A DNA stretch of 33,624 nucleotides from Candidatus Nealsonbacteria bacterium CG11_big_fil_rev_8_21_14_0_20_37_68 (GTDB lineage Bacteria; Patescibacteriota; Minisyncoccia; Minisyncoccales; GCA-002782225). The translations under genes were made by a program, and so were the position numbers. The notes under the pieces are model-generated. The model worked only from the letters and a program-made list of their open reading frames with translations, was not told the origin of the DNA and did not search any database. Positions 3,014-33,480 of the stretch are shown one piece after another; the stretch's first letter is position 1; each line of letters starts with the position of its first letter. The stretch covers positions 29,931 to 63,554 of the forward strand of contig PCWJ01000024.1 of NCBI GenBank assembly GCA_002787295.1. The letters are read 5' to 3'.

Positions 3014-5050
3014 ATGGCTGTGACCAAACAAGAAGTTAAACAGAGAATTGAGAAACTCAAAAAGGTGATTAACCATCATCGGTATTTATATCACGTATTG
3101 AATAAGTCCGAAATTTCTGATGCCGCCTTAGATTCTTTAAAACACGAACTTTATAAATTAGAACAAAAATTTCCAGAGTTTATTACTTCCGATTCTCCAA
3201 CTCAAAGAGTGGCTGGCAAACCCCTGGAAGGATTTGAAAAAGTAAAACATAAAGTTCCGATGCTTTCCATTGAGGATGTTTTCTCTGCTGAGGAACTTAA
3301 AGATTGGGAAGATTATTTAAAAAGATTAATTCCATCTACTGCCTTTGATTATTTTGCCGAACTAAAGATTGATGGATTTGCCATCACTTTAATTTATAAG
3401 AATGGCTTATTTACTACCGGAGCCACCAGGGGAAATGGTCTGGTGGGGGAGGATGTTACCCAAAATTTAAAAACAATCGAGAGCATCCCCCTGAAATTAG
3501 AGGTTCATGGTAAATTGCCAAATACAGAGATTGAGGAAAATCTTAAAAAATTAATCAAAAGAGGAAAAATTGAAATCAGGGGAGAGGTTTTTATGGGAAA
3601 AAAAGACTTTGGAAAGCTGAATGAAGAATTAAAAAAAAGAGGAGAAAAAATCTATGCTAACCCCAGGAATTTAGCCGCGGGTTCCATCCGACAATTAGAC
3701 CCAAAATTAGCTGCTTCTCGGCCCCTTAGATTTTTGGCTTACGATATAGTGACTGATTTTGGTCAAACCCAACACTCTCAAGAACATCAAATTTTGCCGG
3801 TCCTAGGTTTTATTACCGATCTGGGAAAAGAATGTAAAAATTTAAATGAGGTCGTAGATTATCGGAAAGAAATAGCCAAAAAAAGAGAAACTCTTCCTTT
3901 TCAAATTGATGGGGTGGTGGTGAACGTGGACAACAATTCGCTTTTTAAAAAATTGGGAGTGGTAGGGAAAAGCCCTCGGGGAATCAGGGCTTTTAAATTT
4001 TCTCCAAAACAAGCCACTACTAAAGTTTTGGATATAAAACTGCAGATAGGAAGAACGGGAGCTATAACACCGGTTGCTCACTTGGAGCCGGTTGAGGTTG
4101 GGGGGGTAACCATTACTCGAGCCACTTTGCACAATGAAGATGAAATAAAAAGATCGGGAGTAAAAATTGGAGATACGGTTATTGTTGAAAGGGCGGGCGA
4201 TGTGATTCCAGCCGTTGCTAAAGTTTTAAAAGAGCTCAGGACAGGAAAAGAAAAAGAATTTCATTTTCCCGAAAAATGTCCGGTTTGCGGCCGGAACTTA
4301 GTTAAACCATCTGGAGAAGCAGTTTGGCGATGCAAAAATCGAAACTGCGGAGCCATAAAAAGAGAATTTTTATACCATTTTGCTTCAAAAAAAGCTTTTG
4401 ATATCGAAGGATTGGGACCAAAGATTATTGATCAATTAATAGACGAGAATTTAATTTTTAGTACCCCTGATTTGTTTGAACTAAAAGAAGGAGACTTAAT
4501 TCCCTTGAAAAGGTTTGCCGAAAAATCAGCCAAAAATTTAATTGAATCTATTGAAATTGCAAAAAAAATCTCCTTGGCAAGGTTTATCTATGGCTTAGGG
4601 ATTCGTCACGTTGGCGAAGAGATAGCGATTGCAATATCTAATTATTTTGGTTCCCTTGATAAATTAAAAGAAGCTAACTTACAAGATCTTGAGAAAATTC
4701 CAGATATCGGCGAGGTGGTAGCTAAAAGCATATATTTTTGGTTTAGAGATAAGAAAAACTTAAAATTAATCAAAGATTTATTAAAAGCTGGAGTGAAAAT
4801 TATTTTTCCCCAAAAAATAAAAACTCAATTAAAAAGAAAAACTTTTGTTTTTACCGGAGCCTTAAAAACTATGGCTAGAGATGAGGCTGAAAACGAAGTG
4901 AGAGCATTTGGGGGGGCAGTTTCTTCTTCGGTTTCCAAAGAAACAGATTATGTAGTGGTGGGCGAATCCCCCGGTTCAAAAACAGAGAAAGCCAAAAAAT
5001 TAGGAGTAAAAATTATTTCAGAAAAAGAATTTTTAAAAATGATAAAATAA
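3014..5050 (+). CDS. ligA: NAD-dependent DNA ligase
   Basis: 678 aa. Adenylation motif ELKIDGFAI, OB domain, Cys4 zinc finger CPVCGRNL..WRCKNRNC, HhH region and C-terminal BRCT (FVFTGAL..). Confidence 0.95.
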   Translation: MAVTKQEVKQRIEKLKKVINHHRYLYHVLNKSEISDAALDSLKHELYKLEQKFPEFITSDSPTQRVAGKPLEGFEKVKHKVPMLSIEDVFSAEELKDWEDYLKRLIPSTAFDYFAELKIDGFAITLIYKNGLFTTGATRGNGLVGEDVTQNLKTIESIPLKLEVHGKLPNTEIEENLKKLIKRGKIEIRGEVFMGKKDFGKLNEELKKRGEKIYANPRNLAAGSIRQLDPKLAASRPLRFLAYDIVTDFGQTQHSQEHQILPVLGFITDLGKECKNLNEVVDYRKEIAKKRETLPFQIDGVVVNVDNNSLFKKLGVVGKSPRGIRAFKFSPKQATTKVLDIKLQIGRTGAITPVAHLEPVEVGGVTITRATLHNEDEIKRSGVKIGDTVIVERAGDVIPAVAKVLKELRTGKEKEFHFPEKCPVCGRNLVKPSGEAVWRCKNRNCGAIKREFLYHFASKKAFDIEGLGPKIIDQLIDENLIFSTPDLFELKEGDLIPLKRFAEKSAKNLIESIEIAKKISLARFIYGLGIRHVGEEIAIAISNYFGSLDKLKEANLQDLEKIPDIGEVVAKSIYFWFRDKKNLKLIKDLLKAGVKIIFPQKIKTQLKRKTFVFTGALKTMARDEAENEVRAFGGAVSSSVSKETDYVVVGESPGSKTEKAKKLGVKIISEKEFLKMIK

Positions 5051-5098: not shown

Positions 5099-7171
5099 TT
5101 AACTCCTTTTTAATTTCTCAATTGCTTCTGATAATATCTGACAGTATAAATTTAAGCCGACTTGATTTATATTTCCTGATTGCTCTTTGCCTAAAATGTT
5201 TCCGGCGCCGCGGATTTCTAAATCCTTTAAAGCAATTTTATAGCCAGAACCCAGTTCTTCAGCTTCTTTCAAAGCATCTAATCTCATTTCGGCTTTTTCT
5301 GAAAGGTGACTGCCGTTCACCTCCACACCATAACGAGGACTAACTTCGTTAATTTTATCGCCTTCGGCGATTTGTCCTCGTTTGGTGTGGGGGTAAAGAA
5401 AGTAAGCAAAGCTCTGAATGTGAGAACGGCCAATCCTGCCTCTGATTTGATAAGCTTCAGCTAAGCCTAATCTGGTTGAGTCAGCCACGATTAAAGTATT
5501 GACATTTGGCAAATCTAAACCATTTTCAATAATAGTAGTCGCTACTAAAACATCAATTTTTCTATTTTGAAAGTCTGCCATTACTTTTACCAATTCTTTT
5601 TCTTTCAGTCTTCCATGAGCAATCCCCAATTTTACCTCTGGTCTAAAACCCGACGTTAGTCCTTCTAAAAACTTTTTGGCTGTTTCGATTGTCTCTACTC
5701 GATTGTATAAAAAATAAACCTGTCCTCCTCGAGAAATTTCAGCCCAAATTGCTTTTTTAATAACGGTTTCCGACCAGGGCAAAATAAAGGTTTTGATGGC
5801 TAATCTCCCCAGTGGGGGAGTTTGAATTAGACTTATTTCTTTCAGAGAAGATAAGGCTAAATAAAGAGTTCTGGGAATGGGAGTGGCGGATAGAGACAAG
5901 ACATCCAAAGAGGTTCTTAATTTTTTTAATTTTTCTTTTTGGTTTACTCCAAATCTCTGTTCGTCATCAATTACCAAAAGTCCTAAGTTTTTAAATTCAA
6001 CGTCAGAAGATAAAAGCCGATGGGTTCCAATTACCATGTCTATTTGCCCCCGCTTTAAATTTTGAATTATCTTTTTTTGACCCGTTTTTGGCTGCAGACG
6101 ACACAATAACTCAATTCTTATGGGGAATTGCTTTAATCTTTTTTTAAAGTTGTGATAGTGTTGATTGGCTAAAATTGTTGTTGGGCAGATCATTGCTGTC
6201 TGATAACCTGAATTTACTTTTTTAACCATGGTTCTTAGGGCAATTTCAGTCTTTCCAAATCCAACATCGCCGCAAACAATCCTATCCATAGGCTCTAACT
6301 TTTTAAGATCTTGTTCAATTTCTTTCATTGTCTGGACCTGATCCGGAGTTTCTTCAAAGAGAAAAGTGCCGGCGAGTTTGGCATCTATTTCTGAATCGGG
6401 AAAGCAGGGAGGCCTTTGGGCAATTTCTCTTTTGGCGTAAATTTCTAAAAGCTCTTTTGCTAATTTTTCAGCCTCCTCTTTTATTTTTCTTTTAGTTTTT
6501 TGCCAGAAAGGACTGCTTAATCTTGAAATTTTAGGTTCGACAAACCCAATGTAACGTGATAGTTTTCTCTCTAAGCCAAATGGAACATATAATCTATCTC
6601 CTTGGGCATACGCGATCTGGTAGTAAGATAATGTCCGATCGGACATTTTTTGATTAAGGGGTTTTTCTTTTGTAAGGCCAATAAACTTTCCCACGCCGTG
6701 GTCTAGATGGACCAAATAATCTCCGGGTTTTAATCCTTTTAAGTCAGAAAATATTTTTTGAGATTTTAATCTCTTTTTTAAAATTTCTTTAACTGTCTTT
6801 TCGTCTTTGATTTCAATGGGCAATCTTTCAATATTTTCGATTAGGTTTCCGTAAAAATCAAAACGAATTGGATAATTTAAATTAATTGGGAAAACCTCAA
6901 TTATTCCTCCCCGGCGAGAAAATTCTCCGGGCTCTGAAACCCGAATTACTTTTTCATAACCCATTTCATCCAGTTTTCTTAAAAATTGAGAAAAATTACA
7001 GCTTTGATTTTTTTCTAAAAATATGGTGTTATCCTCCCAGAAAGTTTGGGTTTTTTGGGTTTGAAGAATTTTATTTAAATTTTTTTCAAACCAAAAATTA
7101 CTTTTTTCTAAAAAGTAGGGGGTAATACTGACAATCAGAAGTTTTGTGATGATCTGATCTGACATCTCCAT
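5099..7171 (-). CDS. mfd: Transcription-repair coupling factor, shortened architecture
   Basis: 690 aa. RNAP-interaction region GDYLVHLDHGVGKFIGL, SF2 motifs GDVGFGKTEIA and DDEQRFG, and the TRG-like region. Much shorter than the ~1150-aa canonical Mfd. Carries a palindromic insert at 5321-5393. Confidence 0.88.
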   Translation of the reverse strand: MEMSDQIITKLLIVSITPYFLEKSNFWFEKNLNKILQTQKTQTFWEDNTIFLEKNQSCNFSQFLRKLDEMGYEKVIRVSEPGEFSRRGGIIEVFPINLNYPIRFDFYGNLIENIERLPIEIKDEKTVKEILKKRLKSQKIFSDLKGLKPGDYLVHLDHGVGKFIGLTKEKPLNQKMSDRTLSYYQIAYAQGDRLYVPFGLERKLSRYIGFVEPKISRLSSPFWQKTKRKIKEEAEKLAKELLEIYAKREIAQRPPCFPDSEIDAKLAGTFLFEETPDQVQTMKEIEQDLKKLEPMDRIVCGDVGFGKTEIALRTMVKKVNSGYQTAMICPTTILANQHYHNFKKRLKQFPIRIELLCRLQPKTGQKKIIQNLKRGQIDMVIGTHRLLSSDVEFKNLGLLVIDDEQRFGVNQKEKLKKLRTSLDVLSLSATPIPRTLYLALSSLKEISLIQTPPLGRLAIKTFILPWSETVIKKAIWAEISRGGQVYFLYNRVETIETAKKFLEGLTSGFRPEVKLGIAHGRLKEKELVKVMADFQNRKIDVLVATTIIENGLDLPNVNTLIVADSTRLGLAEAYQIRGRIGRSHIQSFAYFLYPHTKRGQIAEGDKINEVSPRYGVEVNGSHLSEKAEMRLDALKEAEELGSGYKIALKDLEIRGAGNILGKEQSGNINQVGLNLYCQILSEAIEKLKRS
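5321..5393 (+). repeat. Family B element inside mfd
   Basis: CCACACCATAACGAGGAC..ATCGCC-ttc-GGCGAT..GTCCTCGTTTGGTGTGG. About 17-bp inverted termini with an inner hairpin. Confidence 0.85.
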
Positions 7172-9676: not shown

Positions 9677-9723
9677 GATTGTTGGATTGTTAGATCGCTC
9701 AATTCTTTCGCTTTGTTAGAATG

Positions 9724-9777
9724 AACATTCTAACACTCCAACATTCTAACCCTCCAACATTCTAACCCTCGAACATG
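9724..9777 (+). repeat. 16-nt direct repeat x3.4 ending in the hit start codon
   Basis: AACATTCTAACACTCC / AACATTCTAACCCTCC / AACATTCTAACCCTCG / AACATG. GTTAGAATG at 9715-9723 is the inverted complement of the CATTCTAAC in the first unit. Confidence 0.9.
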
Positions 9778-11409: not shown

Positions 11410-11840
11410 TCGAGATTAATAATCTGACGACAAATCTGGTTGATGAGAAATTTTTGAAAAAGGTTGCTGGAAAAGTTTTAGAAGAAGAATCCGCCAGCTG
11501 GCGGAAAAAAGAGGCAGAGCTATCAATTGCTTTGGTTGGACAAGGAAGGATAAGGGAGTTAAATAAGAGATATAGGGGTAAAAATCGAGCAACCGATGTT
11601 TTGGTTTTTCCGGAACTAAAAGTAGTAAAAGCCCAAGAAGTTCAGGGTTTAGGAGAAATAATAATTTGTTTTAGAGAGGTCAAAAAAAATGCCAAAAAAT
11701 ATAAATCAAGTTTTGAAAAAGAATTAGCTCGAGTTTTGATTCACGGCATTTTACATCTATTAGGATACGACCACGAAAAGTCAAAAGCTACAGCCCTTAA
11801 AATGGAAGAAAAACAAAACTATTATCTTTCAAAAATTTAA
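11406..11840 (+). CDS. ybeY: rRNA maturation endoribonuclease YbeY
   Basis: 144 aa with the metal-binding motif HGILHLLGYDH. Confidence 0.9.
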   Translation: MIEINNLTTNLVDEKFLKKVAGKVLEEESASWRKKEAELSIALVGQGRIRELNKRYRGKNRATDVLVFPELKVVKAQEVQGLGEIIICFREVKKNAKKYKSSFEKELARVLIHGILHLLGYDHEKSKATALKMEEKQNYYLSKI

Positions 11841-11841
11841 A

Positions 11842-11925
11842 TAAGAACCTGCCTCGCTCCGCCAGTCGGCGGAGCTCGGCAGAACCTTGATTCGCTAAGG
11901 TATAGACATATAATCTTGAATTATG
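11842..11925 (+). repeat. Family A module, copy 1 (ybeY-ftsA spacer)
   Basis: TAAGAACCTGCCTCGCTC..GGCAGAACCTTGATTCGCTAAGGTATAGACATATAATCTTGAATTATG. Contains the hairpin CTGCC-TC-GCTCCGCC-agtc-GGCGGAGC-TC-GGCAG and a sigma70-like promoter. Confidence 0.85.
11887..11914 (+). promoter_or_regulatory. sigma70-like promoter of ftsA-ftsZ
   Basis: TTGATT, 16-nt spacer, TATAAT. The -10 ends 8 nt before the ATG and there is no SD. Confidence 0.6.
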
Positions 11926-13188
11926 CCCAAAAGCCACATCGTTACTGGGTTAGATATTGGCACCAGTGCAATTAAAGCCCTGACTGTTTTAAAAAAGAAA
12001 GGAAGCCAAGACCTCGAAGTTTTAAGTAAAGTTTTAAAACCCAATTCCGGAATGAGAAGAGGAGTGATAGTTAAACCGGAAGAGGTTTCACGGAACATAG
12101 CTTCAGTTTTGGATCAAATTCGAACCGAATCCGGGCAAAAAATTGACGGGGTTTATGTAAACATTGGAGGGAGCCATATTTTTTTAACTTCCTCCCGGGG
12201 TTCAGTCGTGGTTTCAAGAGCCGATCAAAGCATTTCCCGAGAAGACATAGAAAGAGCGATTCAGGCTGCTAAAACTTTTTCTTTGCCCCCAAACAGAGAG
12301 ATTATTGATTTCTTTCCAAAACAATTCATCATCGATAAAGAACCCGGGATTAAAGAACCCTTAGGAATGCGGGGGGTGAGACTGGAAGTTGAAATTTTGG
12401 CCATGGGAGCTTTTTCTCCTTATTTTAAAAATTTAACTACGGCAGTATTAAGCGCCGGAACCCAGATTTTAGATATAATCTGTTCTTCAATTTCTTCAGC
12501 AAAAGCCTGTCTGACTCCTCAGCAAAAAGAATTAGGAGTAGTGCTTCTGGATATTGGAGCCGGAACCACGGATTTGGCAATATATGAAGAAGGAGCTTTA
12601 ATCCATCTGGCAGTAATTCCCATAGGTTCTGGACATATCACCAATGACATTGCCATTGGTATTAGGACAGATATGGCGACAGCCGAGAGAATAAAAAAGG
12701 AATTCGTTCACTATCTTAAGGGAAACATTTTAAAAACCAAAAAAAAGGAGAAAATTGGGTCTTCCTTAAATCCTTTAACTTTTTCTCCCAAACTTTTGCG
12801 AAAAATCATTGAAGCAAGGGTTTGTGAGATTTTTGATTTAGTCCAAAAAGAGATCAAAAAAGTTTCTTCGGTGTTATTGCCTGCCGGAATAGTAATTACC
12901 GGAGGAGGAGCAAAATTACCCAATATTGTAGAGCTAGCCAAAAAAGAATTAAAACTTCCCTGTCGAATCGGAACTCCAATCTTCCACCAAATTTTGGCAG
13001 GAAAAGAGGATTCCGGTTTTTCACCGGAACCGGCGGAGGAAGGGGAAGACCCCGTCTTTAGCACGGCTTGGGGTCTGGTTTTATCTGCAATTGAGCAAAT
13101 TGAGCAAGAGCCAGAAAAAGGTTTCCCCGATTTTAGGAAAAGGGTTATAAATAGAATAAAAAGAACGTTGGGGGTATTTATCCCCTAA
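11923..13188 (+). CDS. ftsA: Cell division protein FtsA
   Basis: 421 aa. Actin-fold motifs (GLDIGTSAIK, DIGAGTTD, ITGGGAKL) and a C-terminal amphipathic basic tail FRKRVINRIKRTLGVFIP. Confidence 0.92.
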   Translation: MPKSHIVTGLDIGTSAIKALTVLKKKGSQDLEVLSKVLKPNSGMRRGVIVKPEEVSRNIASVLDQIRTESGQKIDGVYVNIGGSHIFLTSSRGSVVVSRADQSISREDIERAIQAAKTFSLPPNREIIDFFPKQFIIDKEPGIKEPLGMRGVRLEVEILAMGAFSPYFKNLTTAVLSAGTQILDIICSSISSAKACLTPQQKELGVVLLDIGAGTTDLAIYEEGALIHLAVIPIGSGHITNDIAIGIRTDMATAERIKKEFVHYLKGNILKTKKKEKIGSSLNPLTFSPKLLRKIIEARVCEIFDLVQKEIKKVSSVLLPAGIVITGGGAKLPNIVELAKKELKLPCRIGTPIFHQILAGKEDSGFSPEPAEEGEDPVFSTAWGLVLSAIEQIEQEPEKGFPDFRKRVINRIKRTLGVFIP

Positions 13189-13231
13189 ACCTGCCTAAGT
13201 TTTTCTTTGCAAAATTTAGGTAGGTAAACAT

Positions 13232-14164
13232 ATGACTAAAATTAAAGTAATTGGCGTTGGCGGATCGGGATCTAATACCGTTTCAAGGATGACTTCTTGT
13301 AAAATCCAGGGGGTAGATTTAATTGCGGTCAATACCGATCTCCAAGATCTTAAAAAAACTAAGGCGAATTTAAAAATTCAAATCGGAAAAAACTTAACCA
13401 AAGGATTGGGAGCGGGGATGAATCCCGAAATAGGTAAAAAAGCGGTTGAAGAACAAAGCAAAAATATTGAGGAGGTTTTAAGGGGAACAGATATGGTTTT
13501 TATTACCGGAGGTTTTGGAGGAGGAACCTGTACCGGTGCTGCTCCGGTTATAGCCGAAATTGCTAAATCCCTTGGGGTTTTAACTGTTGCCATAGTAACT
13601 AAACCTTTTGGTTTTGAGGGAGTTCCCCGAATGAAAATTGCCAAGGAGGGATTGGAAAACCTAAAAAGCAAAGTTGATACGCTGGTAGTGATACCCAACG
13701 ACAAACTTCTCTCTTTGGTTGATGAAAACACTACTTTGCTTTCAGCTTTTTGGTTAGCAGATGATGTTTTAAGACAGGCAGTGCAAGGGATCTCTGATTT
13801 AATCTTAGTTCCGGGAATTATTAATATTGATTTTGCCGATGTTAAAACCATTTTGGAAAATTCGGGTCGGGCAACTTTCGGTTACGGAAAGGCAAAGGGG
13901 TCAAAAAGAATGGCAGAAGCCGTAAATTTAGCCATCAATTCTCCTTTGGTTGATTTTTCCATCCGAGGGGCTAAAGGAGTTTTGTTTAATGTTTACGGCG
14001 GGGACGATTTGAGTTTGACCGAAATTGACGAGGCAGCAAAAATTATTACCAAAAACATTGAGCCTCAAGCCAAAGTAATTTTTGGGGCAGTTAAAGATTC
14101 GAAACTAAAAAAAGGAGAAGTAAAAATAATGGTAATTGCTACTGGATTTTTAACTTCCACCTAA
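13232..14164 (+). CDS. ftsZ: Cell division GTPase FtsZ (core only, no C-terminal tail)
   Basis: 310 aa. GVGGSGSN, tubulin signature GGFGGGTCTGAAP, and NDKL. It ends right after the last core strand (MVIATGF). Confidence 0.93.
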   Translation: MTKIKVIGVGGSGSNTVSRMTSCKIQGVDLIAVNTDLQDLKKTKANLKIQIGKNLTKGLGAGMNPEIGKKAVEEQSKNIEEVLRGTDMVFITGGFGGGTCTGAAPVIAEIAKSLGVLTVAIVTKPFGFEGVPRMKIAKEGLENLKSKVDTLVVIPNDKLLSLVDENTTLLSAFWLADDVLRQAVQGISDLILVPGIINIDFADVKTILENSGRATFGYGKAKGSKRMAEAVNLAINSPLVDFSIRGAKGVLFNVYGGDDLSLTEIDEAAKIITKNIEPQAKVIFGAVKDSKLKKGEVKIMVIATGFLTST

Positions 14165-14216
14165 TTAAATTTCTACCGGTTGAGTCAAGTCATTTTAATC
14201 CTTATTTATTTTTTGC

Positions 14217-14244
14217 GGAATTGATTAGATTTAATTCCTTTTTT
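14217..14244 (+). terminator. Possible weak intrinsic terminator after ftsZ
   Basis: GGAATT-gattagattt-AATTCC followed by TTTTTT. The stem is AT-rich and short. Confidence 0.35.
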
Positions 14245-14251
14245 ATTGAAG

Positions 14252-14458
14252 TAAGAACCTGCCTCGCTCAGCTCCGGCAGAACTCCCGCACCAGAGCAAA
14301 GCCCAGCACTAGAGCAGAGCTCAGTGCTGGACAGTCCCGAAGTGAGCTTCGCTCTACTTCGGGGCACGGTGCGGGACTAATCCCGAACCGTGTCGCCGAA
14401 GGCGACTCTGGTTCGGGGCTTGATTCGCTAATGTATAAACATGTAATCTTGAATTAAG
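14252..14458 (+). repeat. Family A module, copy 2 (ftsZ-nrdD spacer), split by a nested insert
   Basis: Same 5' end (TAAGAACCTGCCTCGCTC..GGCAGAAC) and 3' end (CTTGATTCGCTAATGTATAAACATGTAATCTTGAATTAAG) as copy 1. About 135 nt of extra GC-rich hairpins lie between them. Confidence 0.85.
14284..14418 (+). repeat. Nested GC-rich hairpin cluster
   Basis: Outer stem TCCCGCACC/GGTGCGGGA (14284-14292 / 14369-14377) encloses hairpins CCAGCACT..AGTGCTGG and CCCGAAGT..ACTTCGGG. A third hairpin follows: CCCGAACC-GTGTCGCC-gaa-GGCGAC-tct-GGTTCGGG (14382-14417). Confidence 0.85.
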
Positions 14459-14501
14459 TCTCCAATCAGAAAGTTTTAGGAAATTTTTTTAGATGTAGTA
14501 T

Positions 14502-14529
14502 TTGACTGGGGATTTTCTAAGGGTAAAAT
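14502..14529 (+). promoter_or_regulatory. sigma70-like promoter of nrdDG
   Basis: TTGACT, 16-nt spacer, TAAAAT. The -10 ends 6 nt before the ATG. Confidence 0.55.
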
Positions 14530-14535
14530 AAAATA

Positions 14536-16662
14536 ATGACCGAAAACAAAATCAAAAAAATCAAAAAAAGAGATGGGAGAATTGTTGATTTCGACCAGAG
14601 CAAAATTACTAATGCTATTTTTAAAGCCATCACTGCTACCGGTCAGGGGAACGGAAAGAGGGCAAAAAAACTTTCCGATAAAGTAGTCCAGATTTTAAAC
14701 CGTCGCTTTAAAAAAGATGAAATTCCTCAGGTGGAACAAACTCAGGACATTGTTGAAGAAGTTTTAATTTTAGCGGGCCTGGTTGAAACTGCCAGGGCCT
14801 ATATTTTATACAGGGAACAAAGAAGAAAAATAAGAGAGGCAGTGAAGGTAGCCGAGGAAGCGGTGGACCGAATTGATCAATATTTAGAAAAATTAGATTG
14901 GGAGGTTCAAGAAAATGCCAATATGGCCTTTTCTTTGCAAGGATTAAATCATTACGGAGTTTCTTATATTGTAAAAAAATACTGGCTAAACAAAATTTAT
15001 CCAAAAGAAATCAGAGAAGCAAATGAATCCGGAGATTTTCATCTTCATAACCTGGACACCCTTGGCGTCTACTGCGCAGGGTGGGATTTATACGACCTTT
15101 TATTAAAAGGTTTTGGCGGAGTTCCTGGAAAAGTGGCCACTGTGCCAGCTAAACACCTGAGAAGCGCCTTAGGACAGGCAATTAATTTTATATACACAAT
15201 TCAAGGAGAGGTGGCAGGTGCGGTCGCTTTTTCAAATTTTGATACATTATTGGCTCCTTTTATCCGCTATGACAATCTGAATTATCAGCAGATAAAACAA
15301 GCACTTCAGGAGTTTATGTTTAATATGTCGGTGCCAACTCGGGTAGGCTTCCAAAATCCATTTTCGAATATTACTTTAGACTTAAGACCCTCGCCGACTT
15401 TTGCTAAACAGCCGGTGATTATTGGTGGTAAACCCCAAAAGGAAACGTATGAAGAATTTCAAGAAGAAATGAAAATATTTGATAAAGCCCTTTATGAAGT
15501 GATGCTGGAAGGTGACAAGAATCAACGCGTCTTTTCTTTTCCTATTCCTACTATTAATATTACTAAGGATTTCCCCTGGGATGAAAGTGCTTTTGATGGT
15601 ATTTTCGAAGCTTCGGCAAAATATGGAACCAATTATTTTGCCAATTACATTAATTCGGAAATGAAGCCCGAGGATGTTCGTTCAATGTGCTGCCGGCTCA
15701 GATTAAATCTTACAGAACTTTACAATCGAGGTGGGGGAGGATTATTTGGCTCGGGAGCTTTAACTGGTTCGGTGGGTGTGGTTACAATTGACCTTCCCCG
15801 CATTGGTTATCTAGCAAAAACTAAAAAAGAATTTTTTGAGAGATTAGGAAAAATGATGGATTTGGCAAAAGAGAGTTTAGAAATAAAAAGAAAAACAATC
15901 GAGAACTTTATTGAAAAAGGTTTGTATCCTTATTCCAGATTCTATTTATCAGGGGTAAAGAAAATGAGGGGGCAATATTATGCTAATCATTTTTCAACGA
16001 TTGGTTTGGTTGGATTGAATGAAGCCCTTTTGAATTTCATTGGAGAAAATATTGGTTCAAAAAGAGGGAGAAGATTTGCTTTGGAAGTTTTAGATTTCAT
16101 GAGAGAGAGATTGGTTAAATATCAAAAAGAAACCGGTAGCATCTATAATTTGGAACAAACTCCGGCAGAGAGTACAAGCTATCGCCTGGCTTTAAAAGAC
16201 AAGGAAAGATTTCCAGATATAATTACTGCCGGAACAAAAAAAGTGCCATATTACACAAATTCAAGTCAATTACCTGTCAACTACACCGATGATATTTTCG
16301 AAGCCTTAAAGCTTCAAGACGAATTAACCTGTAAATATACTGGAGGTAGTGTTTTCCATATATTTTTGGGCGAAAGAATCTCTGACATTCAAACGGTGAA
16401 AAAATTAATTAAGAAAATTTTTGAGAATTTCAAGCTGCCGTATATCACTTTAACTCCGACTTTCTCAATTTGTCCCAGTCATGGCTATCTAGAAGGAGAA
16501 CACTTTTTCTGTCCAAAATGCACAATTAAACAACCTTGCGAGGTTTATTCAAGGGTTGTCGGGTACATTCGATTAGTGTCTCAATGGAATAGCGGAAAAG
16601 TTCAAGAATTCCACGAAAGAAAAGAATTTAAAATTAGAAAAACAGAATTAGCTAAAACTTAA
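14536..16662 (+). CDS. nrdD: Anaerobic ribonucleoside-triphosphate reductase (class III)
   Basis: 708 aa. N-terminal ATP-cone (KRDGRIVDFDQSKI), C-terminal Zn ribbon (CPSHG..CPKC) and glycyl-radical motif SRVVGY. Confidence 0.93.
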   Translation: MTENKIKKIKKRDGRIVDFDQSKITNAIFKAITATGQGNGKRAKKLSDKVVQILNRRFKKDEIPQVEQTQDIVEEVLILAGLVETARAYILYREQRRKIREAVKVAEEAVDRIDQYLEKLDWEVQENANMAFSLQGLNHYGVSYIVKKYWLNKIYPKEIREANESGDFHLHNLDTLGVYCAGWDLYDLLLKGFGGVPGKVATVPAKHLRSALGQAINFIYTIQGEVAGAVAFSNFDTLLAPFIRYDNLNYQQIKQALQEFMFNMSVPTRVGFQNPFSNITLDLRPSPTFAKQPVIIGGKPQKETYEEFQEEMKIFDKALYEVMLEGDKNQRVFSFPIPTINITKDFPWDESAFDGIFEASAKYGTNYFANYINSEMKPEDVRSMCCRLRLNLTELYNRGGGGLFGSGALTGSVGVVTIDLPRIGYLAKTKKEFFERLGKMMDLAKESLEIKRKTIENFIEKGLYPYSRFYLSGVKKMRGQYYANHFSTIGLVGLNEALLNFIGENIGSKRGRRFALEVLDFMRERLVKYQKETGSIYNLEQTPAESTSYRLALKDKERFPDIITAGTKKVPYYTNSSQLPVNYTDDIFEALKLQDELTCKYTGGSVFHIFLGERISDIQTVKKLIKKIFENFKLPYITLTPTFSICPSHGYLEGEHFFCPKCTIKQPCEVYSRVVGYIRLVSQWNSGKVQEFHERKEFKIRKTELAKT

Positions 16663-17482: not shown

Positions 17483-19078
17483 ATGACCAAATCGAAGATT
17501 TTCCTCTATTTTTGTCTTTCTTTTATTGGGGGAATATTTCTGAGTTCTACTATCTTTGTTCCTGCGCTGGGATTCTCGCTAGGTAGTAGAGTTTATCTCT
17601 TACTACCGGGTTTAATTTTGGGGATTTTGCTAATTTCGATACTTTGGCAATATAAAAAAATTGTTGTTATTGGATTTTGTATTCTATTTTTGGTTGCCGG
17701 AATTTACCGTCACCAACAAGCCGAATTAAAAATTATAAATAACGAATTAAAATCCCACAACGATACCGGCAAAGAGATTATTTTAACAGGGGTAATTTCA
17801 AAAGAAGCCGACATAAGGTCAAATAATATAAAACTAATAATAACACCTGAAGAAATTCAAAATGCCGCAAACCTTCAAAATGCCGAGAACCGTTCTCGGC
17901 ATTTTGAAGGTAGGGTTTTGGTTACAACTAATCGATATCCTGAATATCAATATGGGGATAAATTAAAAATTACCGGAGAATTAAAAGCTCCCATCGAATT
18001 CGAAGATTTTAATTATAAAGATTATTTAGCTAAAGATGGAATTTATTCGGTAATGTACTATCCCAAAATTAAGCTATTAGAAAGAGAAAAATCCATAGGT
18101 CCGACCTATGTAATTTACAGCCAAATTTTATCTTTTAAAAATAAGTTGATGGAAAGCATTTATCAAAATCTTTCTCCGCCCCAATCTTCAATTCTGGGAG
18201 CGGTAATTTTGGGAGATAAAAGAAAAATTTCTGATGAGTGGAAACAAAAACTAAACATTGTCGGGGTGAGACACATTACTGCCGTTTCCGGAATGCATGT
18301 AGCAATTTTAACTACTATTTTAATGACTCTGTTGCTTGGTCTTGGTTTTTGGCGGCAGCAGGCTTTTTATTTTTCAATAGTCTTTGTTGCTTTTTTTGTA
18401 ATTATGACCGGTCTTCAGCCTTCGGCAATAAGAGCCGGAATTATGGGAGGATTGTTTTTGCTGGCCCAATATTTGGGAAGGCAGAAATTTGCCACCAATG
18501 CTCTTTTGTTGGCGGCAGTGGTAATGTTGGCAATTAATCCCTTGCTTTTAAAATTAGATGTTGGTTTTCAGTTATCCTTTTTGGCAGTTCTGGGAATCAT
18601 TTATTTAATGCCTATTTTTCAATATTATTTTCGAAAGTGGTTATCACCAGAGTGGTTTCAAAAATGTTGGTGGCTAAGTTGGCTACCGATAAAATCTATC
18701 GGCGACATTTTGGCTATGACCCTATCCGCTCAAGTTTTCACCTTGCCGATTTTAATTTATAATTTTGGCTATATGTCTTTAGTGGCTCCGATAACCAACC
18801 TTTTAATAGTTCCGTTTTTGTCCTACATTATGGGATTGGGTTTTCTTTTTGGAATTTTTGGAATAATCTCCCAGTTTCTGGGTTGGGTTTTTTCCTGGCC
18901 AGCCTGGTTACTTTTAACCTACTTAACAAAAATAGTAGATTTCTTTTCTCAAATTCCTTTGGCTTTTATAACCATAGAAAATTTGCATTGGGCATGGTTA
19001 ATAATTGCCTATTTAATTTTGGGCTATTTTACTTGGCGAATATCGCAAAAGCAAAAATTAAAGTTTTTAAATTATTAA
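17483..19078 (+). CDS. comEC: ComEC/Rec2-family DNA uptake channel (no C-terminal metallo-beta-lactamase domain)
   Basis: 531 aa, polytopic. N-terminal OB-like region (GRVLVTT..YGDKLKITGELK) then the competence domain (GVRHITAVSGMHVAIL). Contains a 39-nt palindrome at 17872-17910. Confidence 0.85.
   Translation: MTKSKIFLYFCLSFIGGIFLSSTIFVPALGFSLGSRVYLLLPGLILGILLISILWQYKKIVVIGFCILFLVAGIYRHQQAELKIINNELKSHNDTGKEIILTGVISKEADIRSNNIKLIITPEEIQNAANLQNAENRSRHFEGRVLVTTNRYPEYQYGDKLKITGELKAPIEFEDFNYKDYLAKDGIYSVMYYPKIKLLEREKSIGPTYVIYSQILSFKNKLMESIYQNLSPPQSSILGAVILGDKRKISDEWKQKLNIVGVRHITAVSGMHVAILTTILMTLLLGLGFWRQQAFYFSIVFVAFFVIMTGLQPSAIRAGIMGGLFLLAQYLGRQKFATNALLLAAVVMLAINPLLLKLDVGFQLSFLAVLGIIYLMPIFQYYFRKWLSPEWFQKCWWLSWLPIKSIGDILAMTLSAQVFTLPILIYNFGYMSLVAPITNLLIVPFLSYIMGLGFLFGIFGIISQFLGWVFSWPAWLLLTYLTKIVDFFSQIPLAFITIENLHWAWLIIAYLILGYFTWRISQKQKLKFLNY
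17872..17910. repeat. 39-nt perfect palindrome in comEC
   Basis: CCTTCAAAATGCCGAGAAC-c-GTTCTCGGCATTTTGAAGG, with 19-bp arms. TTCAAAATGCCG is also present as a direct repeat at 17856-17867. Confidence 0.9.
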
Positions 19079-27467: not shown

Positions 27468-28955
27468 ATGTCAATATACGATTTGCCAAAATTTGACCCC
27501 GTTAGAAATTTTTTTAAAAAATTCAAAAAAGTAAAACTAACGGGAATTTCTAACGGGGTTGAATTACCCAAATTAAACCCTCCTAAGTTTTTTTTCAAAA
27601 AATTTGGGAGGGTAAAAGTCCCAAAACCCAGCACCAGAGCAGGGCTCGGTGCTGGACAGTCCCGAAGTGAGCTTAGCTCTAGTTCGGGGCTCGGTTCTGG
27701 ACCTTGGGGGAATAAAGCCGTTATTATTTTTTTGATAATTTTAATTTCTTTTATTTTTGGAGGCATAGGTGGAATCTTTACCGGCAGTTATTTTTATTCC
27801 CGGGTAGAAGATTACCTTAAAAAATTAAACATCCAGATTCCCCAGGTTGAAAAAGAAACAATAATCGAAAAAGAGTACGTTCCCGAGACCTCTCAAGAAG
27901 AAAAAACAATTAATGTGGTGAAAGAGGCATCCCCTTCGGTGGTAAGTATTATTATTACTAAAGACCTTCCAGTTGTTGAGCAATTCTACTATAACCCCCT
28001 TAAGGAATTTGAAGAATTTTTTGGGCCCCTTGGCCTTGAGTTTGAAGTTCCTCAGTATCAAGAAAAAGGAACCGAGAAAAAGGAAATTGGAGGAGGAACC
28101 GGTTTTATTATTTCTGAAGACGGAATGATTTTGACCAACCGCCATGTGGTCTTAGATAAAGAAGCAGATTACACTGTTTTAACCAACGAGGGTCAAAAAT
28201 ACCCGGCTAAAGTTTTAGCTCGAGACCCAATCAAAGATTTGGCTGTAATTAAGGTTGAAAGCGAAAAGAAATTTGAGCCCTTAAAATTGGGAGATTCCGA
28301 CAAACTTCAGCCGGGCCAGACCGTGATTGCGATTGGCAATGCTCTTGGAGAATTTCGAAATACGGTTTCTGCCGGCGTAGTTTCCGGGCTAAAGAGAACC
28401 GTTGCTGCTTCCGGCGGAGGCCAAACCGAAGTTTTAGAAAATGTAATTCAGACCGATGCCGCTATTAATCTAGGGAATTCCGGCGGTCCTTTGTTAAATT
28501 TACAAGGGGAGGTGATTGGAGTTAATGTAGCTGTGGCTCAGGTAGCGGAAAATATTGGTTTTGCTATTCCCATCAATGAAGCCAAAAAAGACATTGAGCA
28601 GGTTAAAACCTTGGGCAAAATTGTCTATCCCTTTTTGGGAATTTATTACATTGTGATTACCCCCGAACTTAAAGAAAAATTTAACTTGCCGGTTGATTAC
28701 GGAGCCTGGATTGGCAGAAATGAAAAAGGAGAATACACTGAAGAAGCAATTTTTTCCAATTCGGCCGCCGAGAAAATCGGTTTAAAAAGAGATGATATTA
28801 TTCTGGAGTTTGACGGCAAAAAAATTACTTCAGAAAATCCTTTAGCTAAAATTATTCTGGGATATAACCCGGGGGACAAAATTTCGTTAAAGGTTTTAAG
28901 AGACAACAAAGAGGAAATTTTTCCGGTTATTCTTGGCGAGAGAAGCGAAGATTAA
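27468..28955 (+). CDS. htrA: HtrA/DegP-type serine protease with PDZ domain
   Basis: 495 aa. Intact triad contexts (LTNRHVV, KDLAVIKV, GNSGGPL), a C-terminal PDZ domain and one TM helix. The N-terminal ~80 aa are encoded by repeats and palindromes. Confidence 0.88.
   Translation: MSIYDLPKFDPVRNFFKKFKKVKLTGISNGVELPKLNPPKFFFKKFGRVKVPKPSTRAGLGAGQSRSELSSSSGLGSGPWGNKAVIIFLIILISFIFGGIGGIFTGSYFYSRVEDYLKKLNIQIPQVEKETIIEKEYVPETSQEEKTINVVKEASPSVVSIIITKDLPVVEQFYYNPLKEFEEFFGPLGLEFEVPQYQEKGTEKKEIGGGTGFIISEDGMILTNRHVVLDKEADYTVLTNEGQKYPAKVLARDPIKDLAVIKVESEKKFEPLKLGDSDKLQPGQTVIAIGNALGEFRNTVSAGVVSGLKRTVAASGGGQTEVLENVIQTDAAINLGNSGGPLLNLQGEVIGVNVAVAQVAENIGFAIPINEAKKDIEQVKTLGKIVYPFLGIYYIVITPELKEKFNLPVDYGAWIGRNEKGEYTEEAIFSNSAAEKIGLKRDDIILEFDGKKITSENPLAKIILGYNPGDKISLKVLRDNKEEIFPVILGERSED
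27497..27558. repeat. 14-bp perfect inverted repeat in the htrA 5' coding region
   Basis: CCCCGTTAGAAATT (27497-27510) and AATTTCTAACGGGG (27545-27558), plus an extra CTAACGGG at 27537-27544. Confidence 0.85.
27625..27703 (+). repeat. Family A two-hairpin core, in-frame in htrA
   Basis: By hand alignment, 27627-27690 differs from 14302-14365 at about 5 of 64 positions. Confidence 0.85.
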
Positions 28956-32646: not shown

Positions 32647-32682
32647 GGGATGGCTCCCCGGCACGTGCCGGGGAGCCATCCC
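32647..32682. repeat. Perfect 36-bp palindrome
   Basis: GGGATGGCTCCCCGGCAC|GTGCCGGGGAGCCATCCC, ending 33 nt upstream of the RAYT ATG. Confidence 0.9.
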
Positions 32683-32714: not shown

Positions 32715-33452
32715 ATGCCAATAAAACATCCACAATTTGTTAATGGAGAAATCTATCACATTATAGTTAGGGGAATTGCCGGTCAAAAAACTTTTTTAGA
32801 CGATAAAGATCGTCTGAGATATCTTTTTAATTTGTATAAATTTAATAATAAAAATATAGTTATTCGTAATCCCTCTTACCGGGAAGCCATCCCGGTAGTC
32901 TACCGGGATGGCTTCCCGGTGCTGTTGGAGACAGAAAGGGAAAAGCCAAGAGATTTATTAATTGAACTTTTAGCCGTTTGTTTAGTGCCCAATCATATTC
33001 ATTTATTAGTTCGTCAGGCTGACGACGGCGGTGTTTCTTTATTTTTCCAAAAAATGGGCGGTTATGCCAGTTATTTTAATAAAAAATACCAAAGATTTGG
33101 TTCTTTATTTCAGCGACCATTTAAAGCTATTCATATCAAAACTAATGACCAATTATTAATTGTCACTACCTATATTCATTTAAATTTAATTGATTTAATT
33201 GAGCCAAACTGGAAAATTAAGGGTATTTCCGATCCTCAAAAGATTATGGATTTTTTAGAAACTTATCCTTGGTCAAGCTATCCTTATTATTTGGGAAAAT
33301 CAAATCTTTCTTGGCTAATTAATTCTGATTTTCTAAATAAAATTTTAAAAAGGCCCGAGGATTTTCGGAATTTTGTTAAGGCTCGGATTTTTCAGAAAAC
33401 TGAACTAAAAAATTTTTTAAAGAAGACCAAAGAAATTGAGAAGTTTTTCTGA
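32715..33452 (+). CDS. REP-associated tyrosine transposase-like protein (HUH / Y1, IS200-like fold)
   Basis: 245 aa. N-terminal YHIIVRG, HUH motif in PNHIHLLV, and a Tyr ~57 aa downstream in TTYIHLN. No TnpB partner. Flanked and interrupted by related palindromes. Confidence 0.8.
   Translation: MPIKHPQFVNGEIYHIIVRGIAGQKTFLDDKDRLRYLFNLYKFNNKNIVIRNPSYREAIPVVYRDGFPVLLETEREKPRDLLIELLAVCLVPNHIHLLVRQADDGGVSLFFQKMGGYASYFNKKYQRFGSLFQRPFKAIHIKTNDQLLIVTTYIHLNLIDLIEPNWKIKGISDPQKIMDFLETYPWSSYPYYLGKSNLSWLINSDFLNKILKRPEDFRNFVKARIFQKTELKNFLKKTKEIEKFF
32878..32920. repeat. 43-nt palindrome inside the RAYT CDS
   Basis: ACCGGGAAGCCATCCCGGTA-gtc-TACCGGGATGGCTTCCCGGT, with 20-bp perfect arms. Each arm is itself a small hairpin. 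Confidence 0.9.
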
Positions 33453-33455
33453 TAG

Positions 33456-33480
33456 TCTACCGGGAAGACTTCCCGGTAGA
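33456..33480. repeat. REP-like palindrome, right of the RAYT gene
   Basis: 12-bp perfect arms TCTACCGGGAAG/CTTCCCGGTAGA around a central a. Starts 4 nt after the RAYT stop. Confidence 0.88.

Follow-up and report, generated by a model that had tools for sequence, protein, structure and literature searches.

Two repeat families at the ftsZ-nrdD spacer

In a 33,624-nucleotide (nt) stretch of contig PCWJ01000024.1 from Candidatus Nealsonbacteria bacterium CG11_big_fil_rev_8_21_14_0_20_37_68 (the window), the spacer between ftsZ and nrdD contains a cassette with promoter-like hexamers that is interrupted by a 135-nt nest of hairpins, and an uninterrupted form of the same cassette lies between ybeY and ftsA. 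We consider it probable that this arrangement represents two families of small, non-coding, non-autonomous repeats stacked at the ftsZ-nrdD spacer. The cassette belongs to a family found in many genomes upstream of many unrelated genes, and the nest belongs to a second family that occurs in cassettes at one fixed point and, in addition, in frame within protein genes. The features of the window that bear on this interpretation are as follows.

11842 to 11923, + strand: cassette copy 1, short form (TAAG, hairpin, -35 and -10 hexamers, CTTGAATTA), occupying the entire ybeY-ftsA spacer
11849 to 11882, + strand: hairpin of cassette copy 1, CTGCC-TC-GCTCCGCC-AGTC-GGCGGAGC-TC-GGCAG; predicted -28 kcal/mol, z score -5.5
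11887 to 11914, + strand: promoter-like site of copy 1, sigma-70 type, TTGATT-16-TATAAT, 8 nt to the ftsA ATG
14215 to 14244, + strand: canonical intrinsic terminator of ftsZ, GGAATT..AATTCC and then a T-run, upstream of copy 2; homologous hairpin and T-run in loci L045 and L047
14252 to 14283, + strand: left part of cassette copy 2, TAAG, hairpin CTGCC..GGCAG and AAC
14284 to 14376, + strand: outer hairpin of the insert, stem TCCCGCACC/GGTGCGGGA with the twin hairpin in its loop; predicted -59.3 kcal/mol, z score -7.4
14302 to 14364, + strand: twin hairpin, 63 nt, a pair of like-built hairpins facing opposite ways; its presence varies between strains
14381 to 14418, + strand: second hairpin of the insert (hpB, variant 1), abutting the -35 region; predicted -26.8 kcal/mol, z score -5.7
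14419 to 14456, + strand: right part of cassette copy 2, with an intact -35 TTGATT (14420 to 14425), a -10 TGTAAT (14442 to 14447) and CTTGAATTA, then AG
14502 to 14535, + strand: native nrdD promoter, TTGACT-16-(gGG)TAAAAT, 6 nt to the ATG at 14536; leaderless type, conserved in relatives without the cassette
27591 to 27704, + strand: in-frame insertion in an HtrA-like gene, 38 codons in the N-terminal tail; contains one twin-hairpin copy along with a portion of the outer stem

The two spacers lie within the gene order yqeY, ybeY, ftsA, ftsZ, nrdD, nrdG. The left arm of the cassette, TAAGAACCTGCCTCGCT, was found only at 11842 and 14252 when the window was searched with up to three mismatches allowed (0.03 occurrences expected), and the right arms, CTTGATTCGCTAA..CTTGAATTA, are identical at 35 of 38 positions (11886 to 11923 versus 14419 to 14456). 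Copy 1 follows the ybeY stop codon (11838 to 11840) and ends on the start codon of ftsA, its final A being the A of the ATG (11923 to 11925), with no Shine-Dalgarno sequence between the promoter-like site and this ATG. Copy 2 is interrupted by the insert (14284 to 14418) exactly between GGCAGAAC and CTTGATT, and the position that matches the ftsA start codon reads AAG (14456 to 14458), which simply is the usual TAAG junction of cassette ends and between tandem cassettes. The -10 hexamer of copy 2 is TGTAAT in the window versus TATAAT in other strains of the same population (L053 and L054). The whole 207-nt region (14252 to 14458) has a predicted fold of -101 kcal/mol with a z score of -9.3 relative to shuffled sequences.

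The shared ends, the hexamers, the ATG and AAG positions and the point of insertion were all as recorded in a preliminary description of this DNA. That description also had copy 2 lacking 13 nt of the copy 1 hairpin. The lengths do differ, but copy 2 is close to the usual length for the family, with a loop of 2 to 3 nt, and copy 1 is the longer form. Its loop position holds an extra mini-hairpin, CCGCC-AGTC-GGCGG, and the same piece recurs in the cassette of L025.

The cassette is a multicopy family positioned at gene starts

We scanned a set of species-representative genomes with a strict degenerate pattern for the right arm and obtained 16 stretches from at least 10 metagenome-assembled genomes (MAGs) labelled Nealsonbacteria, Minisyncoccales, Paceibacterota or with generic names of the candidate phyla radiation (CPR); one MAG alone had six copies across five contigs. 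A profile built from the pattern copies and run over all examined loci gave at least 40 distinct downstream contexts, about half of them from the source community of the window, the Crystal Geyser groundwater. Profile scores were bimodal, with cassettes either near-perfect or absent and no intermediates.

The unit consists of TAAG, AACCTG, a short variable GC hairpin, CAGAAC and then CTTGATTCGCTAAKGTATARAYATATAATCTTGAATTA, for a total of about 62 to 80 nt. Its promoter-like part is near the sigma-70 consensus, and the CTTGAATTA at the end is invariant. Head-to-tail tandem cassettes with one TAAG in common were found at L002, L019, L026 and L034, and hairpin-less copies were found within ribosomal protein operons (L015, L016, L017 and L022). 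The upper stem varies with its pairing retained (CTGCC/GGCAG, CTGGC/GCCAG, CTCGCC/GGCGAG, CTGAC/GTCAG and CTGCCTCGC/GCGAGGCAG, which is paired throughout). Genomes have hairpin sub-variants in common, and several variants coexist in one genome. In variants with a paired lower stem, three adjacent bases are altered together on one arm (AAC to GTT, affecting the left arm in L026 and the right arm in L002), a type of change more suggestive of template switching that corrects a palindrome than of selection acting stepwise. The foot of the hairpin overlaps the first bases of CTTGATT.

We rejected two other identities for this part of the cassette. The hairpin is not a canonical intrinsic terminator; it has no T-run, is followed by (CTT)GATTCGC and is absent from the terminator scan list of the window. 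A protein-binding site made of direct repeats (AGAACCT twice) was also discarded, as its spacing is variable (17 to 36 nt) and some variants have the right-hand repeat inverted. In L024 (reverse strand, approximately 3893 to 3958), the spacer and -10 region of a cassette are split by a G-rich 30-nt piece, GGATACCTTGTCGGGTGGTGGGTGGGTTGTAG; both the insertion point and the insert differ from those of the nest.

Cassettes are closely fitted to the genes around them. Thirty cassettes have no further cassette behind them. In 23 of these, a co-oriented open reading frame (ORF) lies no more than 150 nt downstream, and 19 of these 23 ORFs start between -1 and +18 nt from the cassette end. In eight cases the ATG begins on the final A of the cassette, giving the fusion GAATTATG. 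On the upstream side, a co-oriented ORF ends within 25 nt of the cassette in 17 of 28 cases, and in 8 of these 17 the TAA of the cassette is itself the stop codon of that ORF. At L023 (reverse strand, approximately 5249 to 5317), an upstream 677-amino-acid ORF with an acetyl-CoA-synthetase-like C terminus has no stop codon before the cassette and reads through it to the TAA in GAATTAA, gaining about 25 cassette-encoded residues. As in promoter-bearing repeats, near-identical sequence with -35 and -10 hexamers lies upstream of non-paralogous genes. These unrelated genes include ftsA, rpoD (sigma-70), adk (adenylate kinase), guaA (GMP synthase), trxB (thioredoxin reductase), secE, nusG and the genes for ribosomal proteins S7, S9, S17 and L17, among others. 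Scans for tRNA and transfer-messenger RNA genes over the window and the loci with orphan cassettes found none in the window and none beside an orphan cassette; the sole call was a tRNA-Leu in L024, away from the cassettes of that locus.

The native promoters of the window have (gGG)TAAAAT or TAAACT exactly 6 nt before the ATGs at 3014, 14536 (nrdD), 17483 and 21561, the first three with TAAAAT, and no Shine-Dalgarno sequence. This spacing suggests that leaderless mRNAs are common in this genome and apparently the local norm. The cassette fits this norm, since its TATAAT lies 8 nt before the ATG and no Shine-Dalgarno sequence is present. As judged from its hexamers and position, the cassette very probably now drives ftsA. 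A literature search on leaderless promoters in CPR bacteria found nothing relevant.

Both cassettes of the window are absent from relatives with the same gene order

Contigs with FtsZ at 72 to 80% identity retain the order ybeY-ftsA-ftsZ-nrdD-nrdG-comEC (L045, L047 and L048). A profile search of these contigs found no cassette, long or short, in either spacer. In the relatives, ybeY and ftsA overlap or lie 8 to 63 nt apart, and the ftsZ-nrdD spacer is 108 to 168 nt. This spacer contains a T-run terminator for ftsZ and, for nrdD, a promoter of the form TTGAnT-16-gGGTAAAAT-6-ATG, and the window retains the two elements (14215 to 14244 and 14502 to 14535). Because relatives with the same gene order have none, the two cassettes of the window are, by this comparison, lineage-specific gains. 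Furthermore, since nrdD retains its own conserved promoter downstream (14502 to 14529), the nrdD-side copy is probably accessory or decaying.

These results bear on several earlier proposals. The outer module had been suggested to be a mobile or duplicated promoter cassette, and its occurrence as a multicopy family in many genomes before many unrelated genes supports this idea. The refuting condition set out with this proposal, only two copies and a long form that is ancestral at both loci, fails in each part, since far more than two copies exist and relatives have no cassette of either form at the two loci. The module upstream of ftsA had also been described as duplicated upstream of nrdD. 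The module is indeed shared, but the nrdD copy is no specific duplicate of the ftsA copy, as both are members of a large family.

We also considered an ordinary promoter of this lineage under strong selection, possibly with the operator of a global regulator, whose repeated look would come from selection before highly expressed genes. Consensus -35 and -10 hexamers at 16-nt spacing, a fixed distance to start codons, housekeeping genes downstream, hairpin-less copies within ribosomal protein operons and a difference at only 1 of 38 positions between the L13-S9 spacer copies of two related species (L015 and L017) would all be expected of such a promoter. However, identity extends over the spacer and 9 nt past the -10 hexamer, which are not needed for RNA polymerase contacts, and the bimodal scores leave no graded weaker sites. 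Selection on a promoter also fits poorly with tandem arrays of whole units including the hairpin, with copies between convergent genes, with hairpin sub-variants common to genomes while several coexist in one, and with contigs that break or mis-join at cassette sequences. In addition, no cassette is present in relatives that share the gene order, and in these ybeY and ftsA overlap. Considering both sets of observations, we regard a purely selected promoter as unlikely.

The 135-nt nest is an independent repeat family

The insert in copy 2 is built from hairpin units of one design, with an 8-bp stem, a short inner stem of the GAGC/GCTC type, a 3-nt loop and a bulged T. The outer and twin hairpins are predicted to form a Y-shaped three-way junction, and variants of the second hairpin (hpB2 and hpB3) occur at other loci. 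GAGCNNNGCTC was found exclusively in nest elements. A pattern for the nest core, GGACAGTCCCGAAGTGAGC, matched 21 metagenome stretches, many of them at contig ends; the matches all came from JGI samples of the series Ga0100xxx and Ga0210xxx, which also yielded contigs of the locus of the window. These matches represent at least nine distinct contexts, comprising at least six cassettes and three coding sequences, with nests of 93 to 135 nt.

Nest-bearing cassettes lie upstream of nrdD, a gene for a 425-amino-acid protein (the 425-aa gene), trxB, guaA, a long FtsZ-like gene and one other gene. The point of insertion is constant in all of them, between GGCAGAAC and CTTGATT and in the same orientation, and these cassettes differ from one another in the left hairpin, the promoter variant and the second hairpin (hpB1 or hpB2). 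Nest copies also differ by compensatory changes (ACT/AGT versus ACC/GGT, and CCCGCACC/GGTGCGGG versus CCCAGCACC/GGTGCTGG).

Parts of the nest are present or absent between otherwise identical alleles. Upstream of the 425-aa gene, the empty and filled alleles L027 and L026 differ only by the 63-nt twin hairpin, and their flanks match at 100% identity for 400 nt to the left and roughly 140 nt to the right. An empty outer hairpin was found at three loci, including that of L024 and L033 and that of nrdD in another assembly (L052, without the twin); this nrdD variant may be a real rearrangement or a chimera. Thus, the nested insertion that the preliminary description had proposed is borne out by an insert that is an independent repeat family at nine or more sites and is itself nested through a removable 63-nt twin hairpin.

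GC-rich nested hairpins of the form GGGTCGGGACGGGTCGCGAGAG...CTCCCGACCTAGAACC..GGTTCTCCCG were also observed just upstream of cassettes in L052 (1 to 160) and L024 (reverse strand, approximately 7040 to 7100), which suggests that the same community contains further hairpin families.

The nest element occurs in frame within protein genes

A copy of the element lies within the HtrA-like ORF of the window (27468 to 28955), where 27622 to 27702 is 89% identical to 14297 to 14377. The insertion adds 38 amino acids, FFKKFGRVKVPKPSTRAGLGAGQSRSELSSSSGLGSGP, immediately before a membrane helix, and is missing from all 11 aligned homologues. Copies of 129 nt were found in UvrC and in the PolA 5'-3' exonuclease on community contigs, in the same reading frame as the HtrA copy. 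As aligned to solved structures, these copies add about 44 to 47 amino acids between conserved blocks. Only two of the six reading frames of the element are open. The element peptide gave no candidates in an index of 5.8 billion proteins, and its 45-amino-acid translation gave no hits in a library of 1.84 billion representative proteins; neither search gives a count of carrier proteins.

Two further observations concern these genes. In the UvrC ORF of L024, a further unusual stretch, QNQSTKQSFMLGRAHKIMCSGSKLSPATAPPINYGRGLGGQATQNHNSKVK, separates the GIY-YIG domain from the remainder of the protein and may be another insertion. A third type of hairpin is present in the ftsA-ftsZ spacer (13186 to 13228, -18 kcal/mol), where its 3' arm holds a Shine-Dalgarno-like AGGTAGGT located 6 nt before the ftsZ ATG, and in the HtrA-like ORF (27574 to 27616, -21.7 kcal/mol). 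The two are 79% identical with compensatory differences. In the HtrA hairpin, the 5' arm is ancestral coding sequence (LNPPKF, kept in homologues) and the 3' arm is part of the inserted 38 codons, so the inserted DNA carries an inverted copy of its own flank.

A structured non-coding RNA (ncRNA) gene or a cis-regulatory RNA for nrdD or ftsZ (a small RNA, ribozyme, or terminator or stabiliser), as opposed to selfish DNA, would account for the very stable predicted fold of the nest (z scores of -7 to -9), for compensatory substitutions together with one G-U-compatible polymorphism on the sense strand, and for an orientation that matches the flanking genes in nine of nine contexts. Nevertheless, Rfam 15 at gathering scores had no hits in the window and six loci, and permissive E-values over 14150 to 14540 gave a best score of 17.5 bits against a gathering score of 60, with nothing credible. 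At nrdD, the nest lies downstream of the ftsZ terminator and upstream of the cassette -35 hexamer, outside any obvious transcription unit. The same element is in frame in three protein genes, precedes unrelated genes and has parts that are dispensable between strains. We therefore consider an RNA function for the nest to be very unlikely. A hammerhead-type three-way junction was likewise set aside, as the conserved core is absent.

Recurrence of the arrangements across assemblies

Contigs with identical ftsA and ftsZ run on past the repeat into nrdD, the 425-aa gene or trxB, and the true upstream contexts of the last two are tandem cassettes. In short-read assemblies of these MAGs, exact repeats of 140 to 170 nt cause breaks or false joins. 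The continuation of contigs that share identical FtsA and FtsZ into three different genes just past the repeat, together with the many matches at contig ends, is what would be seen if the resemblance of the spacers and their variable contexts were artefacts of metagenome assembly through low-complexity or repeated sequence, but this is scarcely credible as a general explanation. The ftsA and nrdD arrangements recur in independent JGI, ENA and NCBI assemblies, and diagnostic substitutions in the promoter part are particular to each locus. Unrelated MAGs obtained in other studies also contain cassettes, and each coding copy preserves a long ORF in three or four independent contigs.

A model for stacked insertion

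We propose that two repeat families account for these arrangements. A cassette of the first family (family A) was gained between ybeY and ftsA, splitting genes that overlap in relatives, and very probably now drives ftsA. Another was gained between the existing ftsZ terminator and the existing nrdD promoter, where it is probably redundant. TAAG often provides the stop codon of the upstream gene and the promoter end lies at or near the next ATG, which would lead to transcripts that are leaderless or nearly so. The outer and second hairpins of the second family (family B) occupy the fixed point of the cassette between the hairpin foot and the -35 hexamer, and the twin hairpin, located in the loop of the outer one, varies in presence between strains. 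Inside protein genes, the family B element is tolerated in one reading frame. Spread would likely proceed through insertion directed by hairpins or through template switching on single-stranded DNA, with recombination among the copies afterwards.

Several observations weigh against two mobile families. Promoter activity and leaderless or near-leaderless starts are predicted from sequence and position, and certain cassettes have no gene to drive because the genes on either side converge (L010, L011, L014 and L018). No transposase was noticed in the gene lists examined, and mobility in the strict sense is a proposal. The cassette has no terminal inverted repeats, as its ends, TAAGAACC and CTTGAATTA, are not reverse complements. 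Its sole duplication-like feature is TAAG (or TA) at both ends of many copies, which could just as well belong to the unit itself or represent the junction common to tandem copies. Similarly, the twin-hairpin junction of L027 and L026 shows no target duplication beyond 1 to 2 nt. The lower stem of the cassette hairpin (AAGAAC.../...CTT) is paired in just 5 to 7 of 18 variants, formal covariation support is modest, and the orthologous cassettes of two related species (L015 and L017) also fit plain vertical conservation of a strong promoter. Joins of ftsZ to other genes (L002 and L004), which run through about 166 nt of exact identity, may be assembly chimeras or real recombinants. Finally, the copies in UvrC and PolA can be assigned to the same community and only possibly to the genome of the window.

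A bolder version of the model can be put forward, which we rate as less likely than not. In this version, the cassette would be a self-propagating stop-hairpin-promoter unit that breaks overlapping gene junctions in ultra-small CPR genomes into independently transcribed leaderless genes, and the nest would spread without terminal inverted repeats or target duplications toward hairpin loops and feet, in the same way placing disordered peptide loops in frame in essential enzymes. Candidate routes for the nest would be template switching or an HUH-type single-strand transposase. If true, these repeats would form a previously undescribed mobile-DNA system that shapes the transcription units and proteins of Patescibacteria.

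Comparison with known small repeats

Searches of the available literature turned up nothing on repeats of this kind in Nealsonbacteria or Patescibacteria. The 207-nt region had no blastn match in phage and plasmid collections, and IMG/VR scans with the patterns of both families gave no hits. Integron attC sites have RYYYAAC/GTTRRRY cores. An attC-like site was rejected, as these cores are absent and the flanking genes are essential housekeeping genes.

[quoted passage not shown] The concept of putative mobile promoters (Nijveen, Matus-Garcia and van Passel 2012, PMC3575422) and a review of MITEs (PMC10969869) provide the closest comparisons. Correia elements of Neisseria (CREE/NEMIS) and other promoter-bearing MITEs, compared here by description and not by sequence (PMC3575422, PMC10969869), are likewise short multicopy non-coding repeats with a sigma-70-type promoter immediately upstream of unrelated genes and a hairpin able to end up in transcripts. 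Unlike Correia elements, the cassette has no terminal inverted repeats, TA duplication or integration host factor site. It is also strictly directional, from stop codon to hairpin to promoter, with a promoter end fused to start codons, frequent head-to-tail tandems and a host in the Patescibacteria.

The nest resembles in kind the Rickettsia palindromic elements (RPE), which are palindromic repeats of about 100 to 150 nt in a reduced genome, located in spacers and in frame in housekeeping genes whose ORFs stay intact (PMC10969869). Unlike RPE, the nest is found in an unrelated phylum, is GC-rich in an AT-rich genome, is modular and nested with units present or absent, prefers a site inside another repeat and has three coding copies so far. 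REP/BIME sequences of enterobacteria and REPINs of Pseudomonas are also short imperfect palindromes (20 to 40 nt) of one design with variable stems, arranged in mosaics of varied order and orientation; the twin hairpin is likewise an inverted pair of like units. In contrast to these repeats, the nest has no conserved GTAG-type head and is not purely extragenic, given its three coding copies, and its twin units, unlike REPIN arms, are unable to pair with one another. A transposase of the RAYT type (Y1/HUH) is not known for its genome, although no search aimed at RAYT was made. Pneumococcal BOX, RUP and SPRITE repeats are comparable as modular small intergenic repeats that cluster and insert into one another, some of them terminator-like (PMC10969869). 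They differ in organism and sequence, and in the system described here one partner has a full promoter-like sequence and all composite copies share one insertion point.

Implications for Patescibacteria genomes

Streamlining and a scarcity of repeats are commonly attributed to CPR/Patescibacteria genomes. To our knowledge, promoters and translation starts in these bacteria are almost unstudied. A near-identical cassette at the start codons of ftsA, rpoD, adk and ribosomal protein genes offers a testable model of promoters and leaderless starts for this lineage and a ready-made genetics part for the few cultured relatives. The cassettes also point to operon junctions rewired through repeat insertion. 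The nested GC-rich palindromes would represent a second, independent RPE-like case of selfish DNA in the protein genes of a reduced genome, and the live empty/filled polymorphism could expose the mechanism of the nest.

Other repeats and structured regions

Three other repeats were observed in the window. A further family of GC-rich palindromes with GGGATGGCTYCCCGG is present at 32647 to 32682, 32878 to 32920 and 33440 to 33480, as a perfect 36-nt palindrome upstream of the ORF at 32715, a perfect 43-nt palindrome inside this ORF and a related copy at its 3' end. The ComEC-like ORF (17483 to 19078) contains a perfect 20+1+20 palindrome, ACCTTCAAAATGCCGAGAAC G GTTCTCGGCATTTTGAAGGT, at 17871 to 17911, with a partial third arm at 17856 to 17872. 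Tandem direct repeats of about 16 nt, similar to CAACATTCTAACCCTC, lie at 9700 to 9775 immediately upstream of a HIT-family gene.

Outside the window, a conserved structured region of about 170 nt, with no Rfam match and with changes between its copies, was found in L002 (19330 to 19500) and L034 (reverse strand, approximately 3370 to 3540), where it is directly downstream of a tandem pair of cassettes. Its ends are complementary (CGGCAGGTTTG...CAAACCTGCC and GGAGAGCAC...GTGTTCTCC), and the region could be an unrecognised ncRNA, perhaps 6S-like.

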